NCBI GenBank assembly: GCA_965215605.1
Contig: OZ244070.1
Location: 2,144,001 to 2,208,000, forward strand
DNA length: 64,000 bases
Direction of reading: 5' to 3'
Source: an uncultured Candidatus Binatia bacterium
GTDB taxonomy: Bacteria > Desulfobacterota > Binatia > UBA9968 > JAJDTQ01
Of this stretch, positions 15,001 through 21,000 are shown piece after piece. How positions within the stretch are numbered: position 1 is the first letter of the stretch; every line of letters starts with the position of its first letter. Made by a program: the position numbers.

Positions 15001-18000
15001 CAGCAGGCGCCTTCCGGGACGGTGGAGGTCCACGGAAGAGTATAGATTGAGCCACAGGATGGCGGACGGCAAATGAAGAAGCGCCCCCACTTGCCGCCGC
15101 TCATGTCCGTTGTGCTCCGAATCGGGTCCTTACGTACTCCTTCGCATCCTCCTCCGACAGCCTCAGTGATGGCGTGTTGTTCGGCTCTGGGTGGGAGAGG
15201 CACTGTGCCATTCCGAACTTGATCAGGGCTGACACGTGGCATCTTCGTTCCATGGGTCAGGGTGTCAGCCCATCGGATGTATAACTCATTCAGTAAGGAA
15301 TAGAATACGTAACTCTGAGAATACGCCACGGTACGTAAGACGACTATCTCGCCGGTGCTGGTGCCGCTGAATTCCGGACGGGCCACCTTGTTTCGCCCCA
15401 AAGGGCAAGCAGCATGGCGCCCTTCAAGACATAGCGCTCACGGTGCCGCGATTCTCCGAGGCGGTAGAGGAAGCGCTCTGCCGTGTATCGTTGCAACAGG
15501 GCCTCGAAGTTCTCGCCGGTTTTGCGGCTCCGATTCAGCAGCCTTGCACGTACCGACGCACCGACATTTCGGTATTCTCCAGGTGTCATAGCCGAAGCGC
15601 CTCCAGGTAGGGCCGTATGACAGTCCGCGCGCGGCACGCCTCAGCCGCGCGCACGATCTCATCCACCGTGGCTGCTCCCGAGCGCAAGACGTCGTGCAGC
15701 GCCTCCATCGCGATGTCCAGACCGAACTTGTTCCGATAGCGAAAGCAATCCACAACGGTCCGGGCGGGCGAGGTCATGAGAAACGGGACGCCCAAGGCCC
15801 AATGGCGGACCACGCCGTAGGTGAGCCCTGCACCTGAGAAACGGACGACTCGCATACGGGCGGGAGGATGCGCCGGTTTGCGCGCTTTCCGATCGAGGGC
15901 GACCCAAACTTCGTACGGCAACTGGGTGCCGATATCGTGAAAATGGAGCGCTGTGACCAGACACATGATGGCGTTCGGGACCGCCGCCGCCACCATGGCA
16001 AGGGTCTCGAGTTCGGTGGTTTCCACTTCCGAGAGTCTATAGAGGCCGTCCCCGAAGTTCTCCACGGACCCGTCGAACACGAGGTTTTGAAGACGACGAT
16101 GGGAAATGCCGAGGGGTGCGATGTCCCGAGGCCGGAAGAAAGCGCCGACTCCTGCTTCCCGCAATATGTCAAGAGTGTCGAGAGCGACGGGCATCCAACG
16201 ATGATAACAAATGTCGGCACTTTAGTTCAAGTGCCGACATTTGATGTCCTCGTCTACCCTGCCCGCATCCCCGCCAACGCCCCCACGATCGCGTCCGCTT
16301 CCAGCCCCATCTCCAGGATCTCGATGTTCTCGGCGTACTGGTCGGGGTCGATGGCGGCTTTCACGTTGGGCTCGAAGACGTGGTAGGCCGGGAGGCCGAG
16401 CTCCACGCCGGCGAGGGGGCCCGCGTAGGAGGGGTCGCCGGTCGTGACGGTCTCGAACTGGACCTGGCTGCTCTCGGTGGTGGGGGCGCCGAGCAGCACG
16501 ACGATGCCGTCCTTTCCGTATTCTTCAGCGAGTTCTTTTATTCGACCTTGATCCTCAAGGTCCATGGCCCCAGCGGCTGTTCAAACGAAGCACTGGGTGG
16601 CGGCGTACGCGACTTCGCCTCCCAGTCCCGCGATGGCCTGCTCGATGACCGGGGCGGGGACGCCGTCCCGCTCGCCGAGGATGATGAGCTTCTTGCCGTT
16701 GAGGGTGATGGGTTGTGCCGTCATGAGAGTTCTCCTTGTTTGGTAGGGTCAAACCTTGAACTTGACTCTATTGGTGTAAAACTTCGTATGTTCGCGGGGG
16801 TTGAGAGCTACTGTCGCTTGTCGTTCCGCTCGATCAGCACCGACATGCCGTCCGTCAGCTCGGTCATCTGGCCGAGGAACAGGCTGGCGCGGGCCACCAG
16901 CATGCAGTTCCGGATGGCGCCCGCGGCCATCTCCCGGAGCGCGTGGGGCACGTACACGAAACCCGAGGCAATGTGCCCCTGGGTGGGGGCGTAGCCGCAC
17001 ACCCCCTTGGCGCGCGCAAAACCGGCGATGTCGCTCCGGTCGATCTCCTTGGCCATAGCCAGCATGGCGGCCATCATCTTGTAGTTCCGGGCGGCCACGT
17101 CGCCGGCCTTGGCGGACACCATGATGTCGGGGTTGTGCACCTCGGTCACCACCCGATCGAGCCGGTCGACGCCCCATTCTAGCCGCCGCAACGGCTCCAG
17201 GACAAGCTCCCGGAACTGCTTGTCGAGGGCGGCGCCGGCCTTGACGGGATGCCGTCCGACGGCTTGCAGGTTCACCACCGGGCTCTTGCCGTCGTCGCGG
17301 CCGATCCACACGGCCACCGCGGACAGCGCGTCTTCCAGCACCGGGATGCCTTGTTCGAGGTGGTATAGGGACTTCATCCCGAGCTTGGGAAGCGACCCGC
17401 CGCCCACCACGACCACGTTCTCGAACACGCCGCTGTCCACCAGCGAGGCACCGATGACCATGGCGGGAATGGGCGCGGCGCAGAAGTCCTTGATGTCGAT
17501 GCCGGTGCCGAGATCGCAGCCCGCGAACTCGGCGATGGCCTTGGCCATGTTGCCGCCGCCTCGCTGGTAGCGGTCGCCCACCGCCTCCTCCGAGCAGCTC
17601 AGCACCAGGTCGACGTCGCTCAGGTCAAGACCGTCTACGTGGTTCAGCAGCTCGTGCACGGACAGCGCGCCCGAAACCTTGCAGCAGAGGTTCTCCAGCA
17701 GAACTGTCGCCGAGAGCGCTTCGTCCTCGGAGTGGCCCGTCTTGACCACTCCCACGGGCGCGCCTTCGCCGCCGGCGAAGAGCGGCAGGGAATCGGCGGC
17801 CGCCAGTTCCTTGTCCAGTTGGGCGTCGTCCACAAGCGCCGGCGTGCGGGAGGCCAGCGGCGCCGTGAGCGGCGAGGCCGAGAGCGCGGGATGCATCTCC
17901 TCCCAGAACCGTTCCCGCAGCAGCACGTGCTTGAAGGGGTCCGCGCAGGCCAGCAGGGCGAGGAAACGCCGTTCCTCCATGATGTGCCCGAAAGGTGTGT

Positions 18001-21000
18001 CGGCGCCGTCGGCGTCGGCCAGCTTGTCGAACCAAGGCTGCTCCACTTCCCAGAGGCGGGCCGGCGCCTGGCTGCCGATGAACACCTGGTTGGGAAGGTA
18101 ACGGCACGCGTCGTCGTAACCCCACAGCCCCCGCGTCAGATCCGCCAGGAACTCCGGTTTGGCCTTGGCCTCCCGGAACGGCTTGGAGCCGTAACGGACC
18201 AGGCTCGGGGTGTGGGCGAGGGCGGTGGCGGCGCCCTTGATGACGGGTCGGTTCGTCGGCATGGAAGCGACCTTATAACGTCCGCGAAGGCCGGGCAAGG
18301 CTGCACGGCAACGCCGTCCCATGACCGTCATTCCGCGAAACAAGCTGTGTCAAAACCCCATCCGAGCGAGGCAACGACCCCCGAAATCGTCCTTCCCGCG
18401 ACAGCTTGTCCCGACCCCGATCCCCCTCGACGCGCCGCCCTCCTTGTAATATGATCCGCGCATGTCGTGAGGAGGACACCATGCCGGATTCGAAGCAGAA
18501 GCAGTTCGCCATAGACGCCGTGGAGGAGAACGGGAACAACATCGCCCTCCTCGGCGACAACATCTTCTATTTCGCCGAGCTGGGGATGCAGGAATATCGC
18601 ACCACCGGGCTCATGACCGAGATCCTGGAGCAGGCGGGCTTCGAGATCGAGCGGGGCATCTCGGGGATGCCCACTGCTTTCATCGCCACTTACGGATCCG
18701 GCAAGCCGGTGGTGGCGCTCCACACGGAGTTCGACGCCACCCCGTCGAGTTCGCAGATGGCGGGCGTGACCGAGCAGAAACCCATCGTCGACGGCGCCCC
18801 GGGCCACACCGAGGGTCACAACGTCAACGCCGCGGTGATGGTCGGCGCGGCGGTGGCGGTGAAGAAGACCATGGAGCAGTTCGACATCGAGGGGACCCTG
18901 CGGGTCTACGGCGCGCCGGCCGAGGAACAGCTCGTGAGCCGGCCCTACTTCGTGCGGGACGGCTACTTCGAGGACGTGGACGTGGCGCTGCACGATCACA
19001 TCGGCTCCAACCTGGGCACCGTGTACGGCCTGCGGCAGTACGCGCTCATCTCCGCGGAGTTCACCTTCAAGGGCGAGAGCGCCCATGCCGCCACCTCGCC
19101 CTGGAACGCGCGCGACGCGCTGGACGCGGCGGTGCTCATGGACATCGGCTGGGACAAGCTGCGGGAGCATCTCGAGCCTTCCCAGCGCAGCCACCGGGTC
19201 ATCAGCAACGGCGGCGACCAGCCCAACGTCATCCCCAACACCGCCACCATCTGGTGGTTCTTCCGCGAGGCCACGGCTGAGAAGGCGCGGGCGCTGTTCG
19301 AGAAAGCCAAGCGCGTCGCCCAGGGCGCGGCCACCATGACGGACACCTCCTACTCGGTGAACGTGCTGAGCGCGGTGGCGCCCACCCGTTGCAACCAGAC
19401 GTTGGCCGAGGTCATCCAGAACAACATCGAGGCCGTGGGCATGCCGCGGTGGAGCGAAGCCGAGCAGAAACTCGTCACCGACCTTCAGACCAAGGTCAAC
19501 GTCAAGGCCACGGGAATGCCTACGAAGGTGGCCCAGCTCCGCGAGGCCGTGCAGTCCGTGTCCGCCAACGACTCCGGCGACGTCTGTTGGGTGGTGCCCT
19601 CGGGCGTGGTGAACTTCCCGTCCAACATCCCGGGCATCGCCTACCATCACTGGGGCGCGGGCGTCTCCCTGGCCACCTCCGTGGCCCACAAGGGGGCGGT
19701 AGCCGGCGCCAAGACCATGGCCGCCTCCGCCGTTGACCTGCTGATGGACCCGGAACTGGTGGCGCGGGCCAAGGAGACCTTCAGGGAGGAGATCGGCGAC
19801 GTGGAGTACCGTCCGTTGCTGCCCGACGGCCAGCAGCCGCCGCTGGAGCTCAACCGCGTCCTCATGGAGCGTTACCGCTCCGCCATGGAAGCGCACTATC
19901 CCAAGGAGAAGCCCGCATTCAGCTAACGCTGCCGCTTCAGGGGCCGGAGGTGCGGCTACGCGCGATGCTCGACCGCGCCACCTCCGGCGAGAGGATCCAC
20001 GGCAGGCCCCGGCTTCGCCCGTCGCTGGTCGACAAGGTGCTGCGAGACCCGTTCTGGGTGTGGTGCCAATACCACGCACCCCGTGGCGAGGCGGTGAGCG
20101 AGGTCGGCCGCTACGAGCGGATGCGCTACCGCCGCGGCGTCGAGCACGAGGACGCCTGGGTGGCCGCGCACCATCCCGACGCCCTGGCGATCCGGCCCGA
20201 CTTCGGCTACGAGGCCCTGGCCCGCACCCTCCGGGCCATGCTGGATGGCGTTCCGGCCATTCATCAGCCGCAACTGTGGGATCTCGGGCGCGACGTCTAC
20301 GGCCGGGGCGATCTGCTGGTGCGCGACGACAGCCACGGCTCGGACCTGGGCCCCTACCACTACCGCGTCATCGAGATAAAGCGGGCGCGTAAGCTCCGGG
20401 ATGCCTTCGCGCTCCAGGCGGCCCTCTACAACCGGACCATCGGCGCCATCCAGGGCTACACCCCGAGCCAGGTGACGGTGGCGCTGCGGCACGATGTCCA
20501 ACCGGTGGACGTGTCGGGGCTCGGGCGACGGATCGACGATGTCGTGTCGCGTTGGGCCGCGCTGCGGGACGGCGCGGTGGAGCAGCCCGAGACCAGGCGG
20601 CCGCCCGACGTCACCGACTCGCCGTGGCGGGTGTACGGCAACAAGCTGGTACACGAGCGCCAGCACCTGGTGTTGCTGGCCGGGGTGCGGGCGCCCGAGC
20701 GGGCGAAGCTGCGCGCCGCCGGTATCCACGGTGTGAATGATCTATGGAGCCGTTCGCCGGAGGAGATCAACGAGATACTTGGTCCGCACCACGGCTCTAC
20801 GGCCTACCACGTGGCCCAGAGCTACCGGACAGGACAGCCCGTTCCCGGGCCCGGCCGCGAGCTGCGGATACCCCGGGCCAAACGGCTCCTCTACTTCGAC
20901 TTCGAGACCTCCGATGACGTGCATCCGACCCTGCCGCCCCACGTCTACCTCATCGGTTGTTGGGACGGCTCCCGCGACCAGTTCGTCAGGTTCCTGGCTC

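Follow-up and report, generated by a model that had tools for sequence, protein, structure and literature searches.

The window, a 64,000-nucleotide stretch of the genome of an uncultured Candidatus Binatia bacterium, carries grdC and a UGA-bearing grdA, which, going by sequence comparison, form with reasonable likelihood the shared core of a functional, GrdD-less Grd selenoenzyme system acting on substituted acetates. Grd enzymes, among them the glycine reductase GrdABCDE of Eubacterium acidaminophilum, Clostridium sticklandii and C. difficile, are a textbook feature of strict anaerobes that ferment amino acids; the substrate is cleaved reductively with thioredoxin as electron donor, and ATP is obtained via acetyl phosphate. 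The set described here probably serves a different job than in the anaerobes of its discovery, since GrdD and acetate kinase are missing and the substrate-binding parts are altered.

Both genes lie on the reverse strand. grdC (16808..18262) encodes a protein C β subunit of the GrdD-less subtype with 484 amino acids, scoring 512.2 bits against NF040746 (cut-off 450) in the profile search and 141.6 bits against DUF5940 in the Pfam search. When TGA is translated as selenocysteine, grdA (16254..16724) encodes a selenoprotein A of 156 amino acids, with 207.1 bits on NF040748 (cut-off 130) and 204.8 bits on PF04723; its CxxU redox motif is CFVU, residues 45-48. These values bear out the genome-wide survey's note, which had reported a Grd-type selenoenzyme set at this place. 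The span given there, 16263-18247, does hold both genes but delimits the profile-matched part, the genes themselves extending over 16254-18262. In the 83-nt spacer between them (16725-16807), an AGGAGA-type ribosome-binding site may be read 5' of the grdA ATG (16730..16737, reverse strand). The AlphaFold2 model of GrdC (pLDDT 88.6) has FabH, OleA, SpoVAD and BioZ as its top folds, the predicted fold being thiolase/FabH-like, and Cys249 and Cys261 are invariant columns in the GrdC alignment. The survey's caution that public records may already label these genes was well placed, as close relatives of this GrdC are named there. An M20D amidohydrolase gene (18406..19926, forward strand) is divergent to grdC and matches TIGR01891 (205.6 bits, cut-off 153.75) and Pfam M20. 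It is present at all four congeneric loci examined, adjoining grdC in three (L061, L063, L064) and lying about 4 kb off in L062; within the genus its place near grdC is conserved, and it is at most a candidate member of the Grd system.

The single in-frame TGA of grdA is codon 48 (16581..16583, reverse strand; motif CFVUTAAG), read as selenocysteine. The genome encodes the selenocysteine machinery, with selA, selB and selD scoring 580, 380 and 374 bits, respectively; selD carries a TGA of its own, and there are two tRNA-SeC candidates. Beginning 18 nt past the grdA UGA, the hairpin GACCUUGA-GGA-UCAAGGUC (16544..16562, reverse strand) is a candidate bacterial SECIS. Its stem comprises 8 bp; taken by itself, the 60-nt stretch has a z-score of -1.08, which is not significant. 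The same hairpin is kept in every stretch from the genus and from the type-C-linked clade, and other clades possess different hairpins at the equivalent place. Of the order's genomes, 87 have GrdA, and every full-length match in them contains a single TGA, two matches at contig ends being without it.

GrdD, the protein C α subunit that forms acetyl phosphate, is missing, in agreement with the earlier observation. Its best NF040747 score in the genome is 15.8 bits (cut-off 350), a tblastn search of the genome with two genuine GrdD sequences gave a best E of 0.18, and none of the 121 genomes of the order exceeds the cut-off (best 28.8 bits), the weak matches coming from a PlsX-like gene. Unlike that of glycine reductase, the GrdC of the Binatia set is also devoid of a C-terminal tail of about 30 residues. 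Only 10 residues follow its DGxS motif, as compared to 37-52 in all six GrdD-linked GrdC proteins, which form a single clade; GrdD-less GrdC proteins in which DGxS was found have 6-20 residues past the motif, with one exception of 62 (L081). Because GrdD was found in none of the 121 genomes and the GrdC tail correlates with its presence, the absence of GrdD is a stable trait of a distinct GrdC subfamily and not a gap in the data. The layout is common to many phyla and not special to Binatia: among the 80 loci whose GrdC is closest, 74 have grdC-grdA without GrdD, though this sample, being composed of the loci most similar to our GrdC, is biased to its subtype. The Grd set is therefore confined neither to Binatia nor to sponge symbionts. 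The trimmed layout is found in dozens of species-level genomes, including the cultured Lentibacillus kapialis JCM 12580 and Desulforhabdus sp. TSK.

Neither ackA (TIGR00016) nor PTA_PTB/pta has a match in the 97%-complete genome, which thus lacks acetate kinase coupling for substrate-level phosphorylation, and a haem-copper oxidase (COX1) is present. Acetyl phosphate might still be formed without GrdD, either through phosphorolysis by GrdC alone or with PlsX or another acyltransferase as a substitute, and be used by acetate kinase where present or otherwise. Within the order, 46 of the 87 genomes with GrdA also encode acetate kinase, so this route is plausible for them, and 3 of 7 GrdD-less phylum outgroups with GrdC (G299, G280, G223) do so as well; the PlsX-like gene behind the weak NF040747 matches points the same way. 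We nevertheless consider it unlikely, as our own genome has neither enzyme, GrdA is retained in the 41 genomes of the order lacking ackA, no conserved extra gene occurs in the GrdD-less operons examined, and the link provided in the canonical operon of genome G165 by grdC-grdD-grdA-ackA in series is absent here.

The substrate modules are encoded elsewhere in the genome. Of the two grdE-grdB pairs described before, both exist (C1:683277-685892 and C1:3428285-3430935, with GrdB at 490.2 and 428.4 bits on TIGR01918, cut-off 65.45), but a third pair (C1:1886974-1889559, 490.1 bits) and a lone, fourth grdE-like gene for a subunit D (C1:2097374-2098675, reverse strand) had been overlooked, the total being three grdE-like/grdB(UGA) pairs and one lone gene. 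Each grdB has one TGA followed by G, as in a protein B selenoprotein. The motifs are UGTSTRSG in type A, UGTCTRCG in type B and UGTCSRSG in type C; UxxCxxC is full in type B, retains the first Cys only in type C and has no Cys in type A. All 28 genomes of the genus have GRDB, and 20 have three matches to it. Type-A pairs are adjoined by a gene for a CxxC DUF255 thioredoxin-like protein. The neighbours give no consistent substrate hint: TctABC lies by pair B and TauD by the lone GrdE, and in relatives type C has TctC or NMT1/SsuA-like binding proteins in its vicinity.

Since every part matches Grd family models, the set could be taken for an ordinary glycine, sarcosine or betaine reductase conserving energy anaerobically in anoxic sponge tissue, its low scores reflecting phylogenetic distance. 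This is improbable in view of the distance from the respective models, which the survey had also remarked for GrdB: the B proteins reach 383-486 bits, where the glycine, sarcosine and betaine models have cut-offs at 602, 800 and 775, and the GrdE-like proteins 166-232 bits as compared to 780, with no equivalog-level match. In the glycine and sarcosine enzymes, the GrdE/GrdG proprotein is cleaved at a Cys to give a pyruvoyl group. The SGN-C site of this cleavage, required for both substrates, is absent from all four of our GrdE-like proteins and from every one in the order; it is present in the comparison loci L078, L080, L082, L084, L096, L108, L112, L132 and L163. Also at odds with an ordinary reductase are the missing GrdD, ackA and pta, and no Grd locus of the order contains a thioredoxin gene. 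Judged from these residues, the B proteins depart from the glycine type in its defining positions, beyond a low score.

The Binatia set shares with glycine reductase a CxxU-bearing GrdA, a GrdB-type selenoprotein in which G follows U, a partner from the GrdE family and a GrdC over the equivalog cut-off. It differs, besides GrdD and the GrdC tail, in GrdE-like proteins without the Cys cleaved to pyruvoyl, in the lack of trxB-trxA in the cluster and of ackA/pta, and in the presence of the haem-copper oxidase. For betaine reductase, PMC10838667 states that the GrdI α subunit is not a proprotein, as it can do without a Schiff base; the missing SGN-C site fits such an unprocessed GrdI, which speaks for an ordinary reductase. 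However, the GrdH model (cut-off 775) gives 444 bits for type A, 420 for type B and 383 for type C, types A and C are without Cys residues of UxxCxxC, and no BCCT/OpuD-type betaine transporter is found among the Pfam matches of the genes flanking the pairs. PMC10838667 also describes FarB as lacking CxxC and FarE as lacking the processing cysteines, and type A shares both departures with this fluoroacetate reductase of Cloacibacillus porcorum MFA1. FarE (NF053623) is the second-best NCBIfam match for all four GrdE-like proteins; orthology to it was rejected at 106-152 bits as compared to a cut-off of 675. Far, which belongs to an anaerobe, delivers to a complete GrdCD system, the gene list in a figure legend of PMC10838667 being grdABCDEX, whereas the Binatia set is without GrdD. 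D-proline reductase PrdA/PrdB belongs to the same superfamily, with weak TIGR04480 and TIGR04483 matches, and identity with PrdAB was rejected at 25-40 bits for PrdA (cut-off 700) and 76-84 bits for PrdB (cut-off 300). To our knowledge, Prd works without GrdA and GrdC, two proteins that the Binatia set has and conserves. D-proline reductase yields no acetyl phosphate, according to an excerpt of PMC13188914.

In the order, GrdA occurs in 87 of 121 genomes and GrdC in 88 (E ≤ 1e-20), 78 of these over the cut-off. GrdA with one TGA is found in 26 of 27 congeners and in 60 of 93 genomes of other genera, larger counts that repeat the pattern of conservation reported earlier. The genes, which the survey had described as scattered, are so in this genus only; in other genera of the order they form one cluster, with grdC-grdA directly adjoining type-A pairs (L047, L048, L055) or type-C pairs (L054, L057, L065, L066), and the scattered genes can hence be regarded as one system. 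The scattering, mobile or defence-like genes flanking grdC-grdA in the window, the distribution of GrdC of the order over three separate clades, which suggests several acquisitions, and the fragmentation of grdC in a few genomes (G066, G083, G104), which makes the system dispensable in some lineages, might indicate decaying, non-working remnants of a horizontally acquired operon. Such decay is very hard to reconcile with the intact frames, the TGA that no full-length GrdA match has lost, the kept hairpins, the complete selenocysteine machinery and three B types maintained across the genus, and we give it very little credence. RNA-library contigs of relatives, which span the genes, argue in the same direction: contigs from four studies, 90-96% alike, span grdA, and one run yielded a contig that joins grdA with the 3' end of grdC, DNA carry-over being possible. 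Close relatives of the source bacterium occur in sponge samples.

For the GrdD-less system acting on substituted acetates that we favour, we infer the following substrate class, reaction steps, acetyl acceptor and reductant, the acceptor solely from the absences described above and the GrdC fold. Each of the three GrdE-like/GrdB(Sec) modules (types A, B and C), with the spare GrdE-like D, would bind a compound X-CH2-COO-. Because the B modules are without the pyruvoyl-forming Cys, attack on the C-X bond would probably involve no Schiff base, in line with what has been proposed for GrdI and FarE. The carboxymethyl group would pass to Sec48 of GrdA as a selenoether, which the thiolase-fold GrdC would turn into an acetyl thioester, GrdA being oxidised meanwhile. 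GrdA would be re-reduced by a thiol reductant, namely thioredoxin and, in the case of type A, possibly the CxxC DUF255 protein encoded next to the pair. The acetyl unit would most likely exit as acetyl-CoA or acetate, and not as acetyl phosphate for ATP synthesis, since GrdD, acetate kinase and phosphotransacetylase are all missing. The role of the system, in an organism that respires, would then be catabolic or assimilatory, and not one of Stickland-type energy conservation.

A wider reading, which we put forward tentatively and hold to be possible rather than probable, is that GrdD-less Grd constitutes a separate cross-phylum selenoenzyme class, in which C-X bonds are cleaved pyruvoyl-free in respiring bacteria and GrdC alone hands acetyl to CoA; in the Binatia genus, three to four interchangeable substrate modules would share one GrdA/GrdC core and might be adapted to osmolytes or xenobiotics that the sponge host supplies. 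Proposed members of such a class are Binatia, Entotheonella, Chloroflexota, Actinomycetota, Methylomirabilales and others, and candidates for X are a quaternary amine, a sulfonium or sulfonate group, a halide or similar.

The same selenoprotein core is thus kept stably in a respiring lineage without the subunit that forms acetyl phosphate or the enzymes that use it, and the substrate modules of the Binatia set have lost the cofactor site required for glycine. This raises the questions of what role Grd-type selenoenzymes play outside fermentation, and whether GrdC alone can pass an acetyl unit to CoA; such a role would point to new carbon sources of sponge symbionts and to a broader chemistry of selenocysteine enzymes in oxic habitats.

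Profile searches of the window identified grdC (16808-18262, minus strand; 484 aa) as an end-to-end match to NF040746, the protein C beta subunit GrdC (512.2 bits against a cut-off of 450), and grdA (16254-16724, minus strand; 156 aa) with 207.1 bits on NF040748 (cut-off 130) and 204.8 bits on PF04723. CFVUTAAG stands at GrdA residues 45-51 when the TGA is translated as U; the profile scores and this in-frame TGA confirm the GrdC and the UGA-containing GrdA that the genome-wide survey's note had placed here. The genes are separated by 83 nt, within which lies a ribosome-binding site of AGGAGA type, and neither a second GrdC-like gene (DUF5940 search) nor a GrdC paralogue (tblastn with GrdC) was found in the genome. 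A hairpin with an 8-bp stem, GACCUUGA-GGA-UCAAGGUC, begins 18 nt 3' of the grdA UGA and is unchanged across the genus and a neighbouring clade; in other clades this position is taken by different hairpins. Taken alone, the grdA hairpin is no more stable than shuffled sequence (z = -1.08), and in single 60-nt stretches the hairpin free energies are no better than those of shuffles (z from +0.06 to -1.08), so that they are not evidence by themselves.

The genes selA, selB and selD lie in a row (C1:1984272-1988572). One in-frame TGA is present in selD (C1:1984272-1985198, outside the window), so its product, selenophosphate synthetase, is probably a selenoprotein too. ARAGORN called two tRNA-SeC candidates outside the window (C1:259405-259499 and C1:2086515-2086611), one of which could be spurious or a duplicate.

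The genes of two RNase_H_2 proteins bracket grdC-grdA, namely a 1147-aa helicase/nuclease protein (11602-15045, plus strand), which also has PD-(D/E)XK and superfamily-1 helicase domains, and a 490-aa RNase-H-like protein (19950-21422, plus strand). Defence- or mobile-element-like neighbours of the core are a protein with an AbiEi-like antitoxin C-terminal domain (15586-16194, minus strand; borderline at 22.0 bits against a cut-off of 22.2) and an HTH and IrrE/M78 peptidase protein (22182-23285, minus strand). An M20D amidohydrolase gene (TIGR01891, 205.6 bits) lies beside grdC in divergent orientation. Both the 490-aa gene and the M20 gene accompany grdC among congeners, coming after it in all four congeneric loci examined.

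GrdD was not detected in this genome with NF040747 (best score 15.8 bits) or by tblastn with two genuine outgroup GrdD queries (best E = 0.18), and it exceeded the cut-off in 0 of 121 genomes of the order, the best score of 28.8 bits being like those of control genomes, which bears out its reported absence. No shared extra gene able to replace GrdD is common to the GrdD-less operons examined. GrdA occurs in 87 of the 121 genomes, with one TGA in every full-length match. Its retention, earlier given as 23 of 24 congeners and 10 of 16 genomes of other genera, now stands at 26/27 and 60/93, respectively. GrdC matches at E<=1e-20 occur in 88 of the 121 genomes (78 over the cut-off). Three unpublished genomes (G069, G092, G102) enter into the GrdD, GrdA and GrdC counts. 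GRDB matches are present in 28/28 genomes of the genus, 20 of which have three. In three relatives (loci L051 and L052 of genomes G083 and G104, and genome G066) grdC is broken into two or three reading frames with the grdA TGA kept, which may reflect decay or assembly error.

Searches of the 4.06 Mb genome (8 contigs, 97% complete) with the GRDB and Gly_reductase Pfam models, followed by frame reading, located three grdE-like/grdB pairs and one lone grdE-like gene outside the window. Module A consists of grdE-like C1:683277-684557 and grdB C1:684606-685892, and module B of grdE-like C1:1886974-1888248 and grdB C1:1888258-1889559. In module C, on the minus strand, grdB (C1:3429607-3430935) comes first and overlaps the grdE-like gene (C1:3428285-3429610) by ATGA, and module D is a grdE-like gene (C1:2097374-2098675, minus strand) with no grdB. 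The two pairs noted earlier are therefore real and correspond to A and C; pair B and the lone gene D had been overlooked. Each of the three grdB genes has one in-frame TGA, followed by 81-90 more codons. The three GrdB proteins exceed the cut-off of TIGR01918, a broad subfamily model (490.2, 490.1 and 428.4 bits), and fall far under the cut-offs for glycine (602), sarcosine (800) and betaine (775), as had been stated for two of them. The GrdE-like proteins score 166-232 bits on the sole alpha-subunit model available (cut-off 780), their second-best match being FarE of fluoroacetate reductase (106-152 bits against a cut-off of 675). A PDB sequence search with GrdE of type A gave no match at E<=0.01.

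A single GrdB of type C is common to the GrdE proteins of types C and D in this genome. Loci L054 and L091, from other genera of the order, have up to three type-C GrdE-like genes around one type-C grdB, one of the GrdE-like genes being set apart by a gene for a solute-binding protein. Together, these arrangements suggest several alpha subunits per selenoprotein.

Scattering of the grd genes, likewise noted earlier, holds for this genus and not for loci of other genera in which type-A or type-C pairs are joined to the core. Among 20 loci examined from other members of the order, grdC-grdA directly adjoins a type-A pair in L047, L048 and L055 and a type-C pair in L054, L057, L065 and L066, with additional GrdE-like copies in some of them; in the rest, grdC-grdA stands alone within about 8 kb. 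We conclude that the scattered grd genes of this genome form one system. A DUF255 protein of about 500 aa with a CGIC motif is encoded beside the type-A pair in this genome and in L047, L048 and L055. A thioredoxin gene, present in 39 of 110 loci overall, was found in no locus of the order.

The GrdD-less layout is also seen outside the Binatia. GrdA was found in 10 of 200 sampled other genomes in the phylum; GrdC is present in nine of these and GrdD in only two. In the seven GrdD-less genomes the operons read grdE-grdB-(trx)-grdC-grdA, and most of them encode a GrdE of the glycine type. A GrdC alignment scan, with one genome per GTDB species, gave 580 relatives, and GrdD is absent in 74 of the best 80 of these 580 loci, a set biased towards the present GrdC subtype because the best-matching ones were kept; a locus was called GrdD-less where grdA lay directly downstream or at least 1.5 kb was visible downstream. 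Within the same best 80 of 580, GrdD adjoins GrdC in four loci (Adiutrix, Treponema, a Bacillota MAG and a Tissierellia MAG), two loci were too short to judge, and grdA starts no more than 900 nt past grdC in 67. These best 80 come from Candidatus Binatia, Entotheonella/Tectomicrobia, Methylomirabilales, Chloroflexota, many Actinomycetota, Armatimonadota, Nitrospinota, Acetothermia, Dormibacteria and Desulfobacterota-type lineages, and include the isolates Lentibacillus kapialis JCM 12580 and Desulforhabdus sp. TSK. In many of the GrdD-less loci the GrdE-like partners are also non-Cys and represent several additional types.

The GrdC proteins of the order are split among three separate clades, of which one neighbours sequences from Dehalococcoidia and Entotheonella; the module was therefore probably acquired more than once. 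In the Dehalococcoidia bacterium UBA1141 (locus L139), a type-A-like pair with the Cys-free motif UGTSTRSG is 55% (GrdB) and 47% (GrdE) identical to type A of this genome. The GrdC of L139 clusters with those GrdC proteins of the order that are linked to type A, a hint of transfer between phyla. A phylum genome with no GrdC match has a GrdA-like gene with TGA beside an aldehyde dehydrogenase gene (L085; G136:C1:1259477-1259917); on both grounds, it is an orphan selenoprotein A.

The proteins depart from the classical enzyme at several points. Glycine-type GrdE of outgroup operons retain DGAIVSGNCVSACDKNTTY, whereas the Cys is absent at this site from every GrdE-like protein of the order, the four of this genome included. 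The GrdB Sec motif is of the usual form in type B (UGTCTRCG), has one Cys in type C (UGTCSRSG) and none in type A (UGTSTRSG). As its motif is Cys-free and its GrdE-like partner lacks the Cys at the glycine-type site, type A shows both departures of fluoroacetate reductase, yet it is not a Far orthologue. Among 107 GrdC sequences, all six GrdD-linked ones, which form one clade in a FastTree phylogeny, have 37-52 residues past the DGxS motif; GrdD-less GrdC in which the motif was found have 6-20, except L081, whose frame runs into grdA, the search pattern having missed the motif in 23 sequences of 438-486 aa total length. Judged by sequence, GrdC of this genome belongs to the tail-less subtype.

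Neither ackA nor a PTA_PTB domain was found in the 97%-complete genome, which has a haem-copper oxidase subunit I. A strict anticorrelation of ackA with GrdA in the order was considered and is not claimed, since ackA presence does not track GrdA: it is present in 46 and absent in 41 of the 87 GrdA-positive genomes, and present in 22 of the 34 GrdA-negative ones.

A PDB sequence search with GrdC gave no match at E<=0.01. Its AlphaFold2 model (pLDDT 88.6, pTM 0.91) matched FabH, OleA, SpoVAD, BioZ and HMG-CoA synthase in Foldseek (E about 1e-9 to 1e-8) and places the invariant Cys261 between a strand and a helix, a position that we take to be typical of the acyl-Cys in thiolase-fold enzymes. As Kohlstock et al. 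are said to have reported in 2001, the thioester that is phosphorolysed is carried by GrdD. Beyond gene identity, we infer every step of the following path. A GrdE-like/GrdB module would bind a substituted acetate, with attack proceeding without a Schiff base, and the carboxymethyl group would pass to Sec48 of GrdA; GrdC would then form an acetyl thioester, from which the acetyl unit would go to CoA or water. For the roles of the classical Grd subunits we rely on passages in PMC13188914 and PMC9908766.

Words of the stretch were found in 22 runs from 9 studies, with small shares in three DNA runs labelled sponge metagenome (X9, X10, X12). Four RNA-library runs from four studies, two labelled sponge metagenome, were compared; their contigs are from relatives, and presence in RNA libraries is no proof of transcription. 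In three of these runs, contigs 90-96% alike cover grdA fully; in X19 such contigs cover much of grdC, parts of which are uncovered, and in X21 grdA and the 3' end of grdC lie on one and the same contig, separated by a different spacer.

Public labels, whose possible existence had been raised, are indeed in place: a 90%-cluster relative of this GrdC is already named in NCBI nr, and relatives of the GrdE-like proteins carry the name "hypothetical protein" at NCBI and are called "glycine reductase" or "sarcosine reductase" by IMG. The open-access literature searched again showed no work on Grd genes in Binatia or sponge symbionts, and none describing a Grd system without GrdD. A paper on an Olavius symbiont does not report Grd proteins, its table giving 0 GrdA and 0 GrdB.

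Reading the genes as a Grd-type set without GrdD and with open substrates remains valid. Its conservation in the Binatia order likewise stands, and the layout is not restricted to Binatia. The set of this genome is better framed as a well-conserved, multi-module member of a wide, uncharacterised GrdD-less Grd variant, which occurs largely in respiring lineages.
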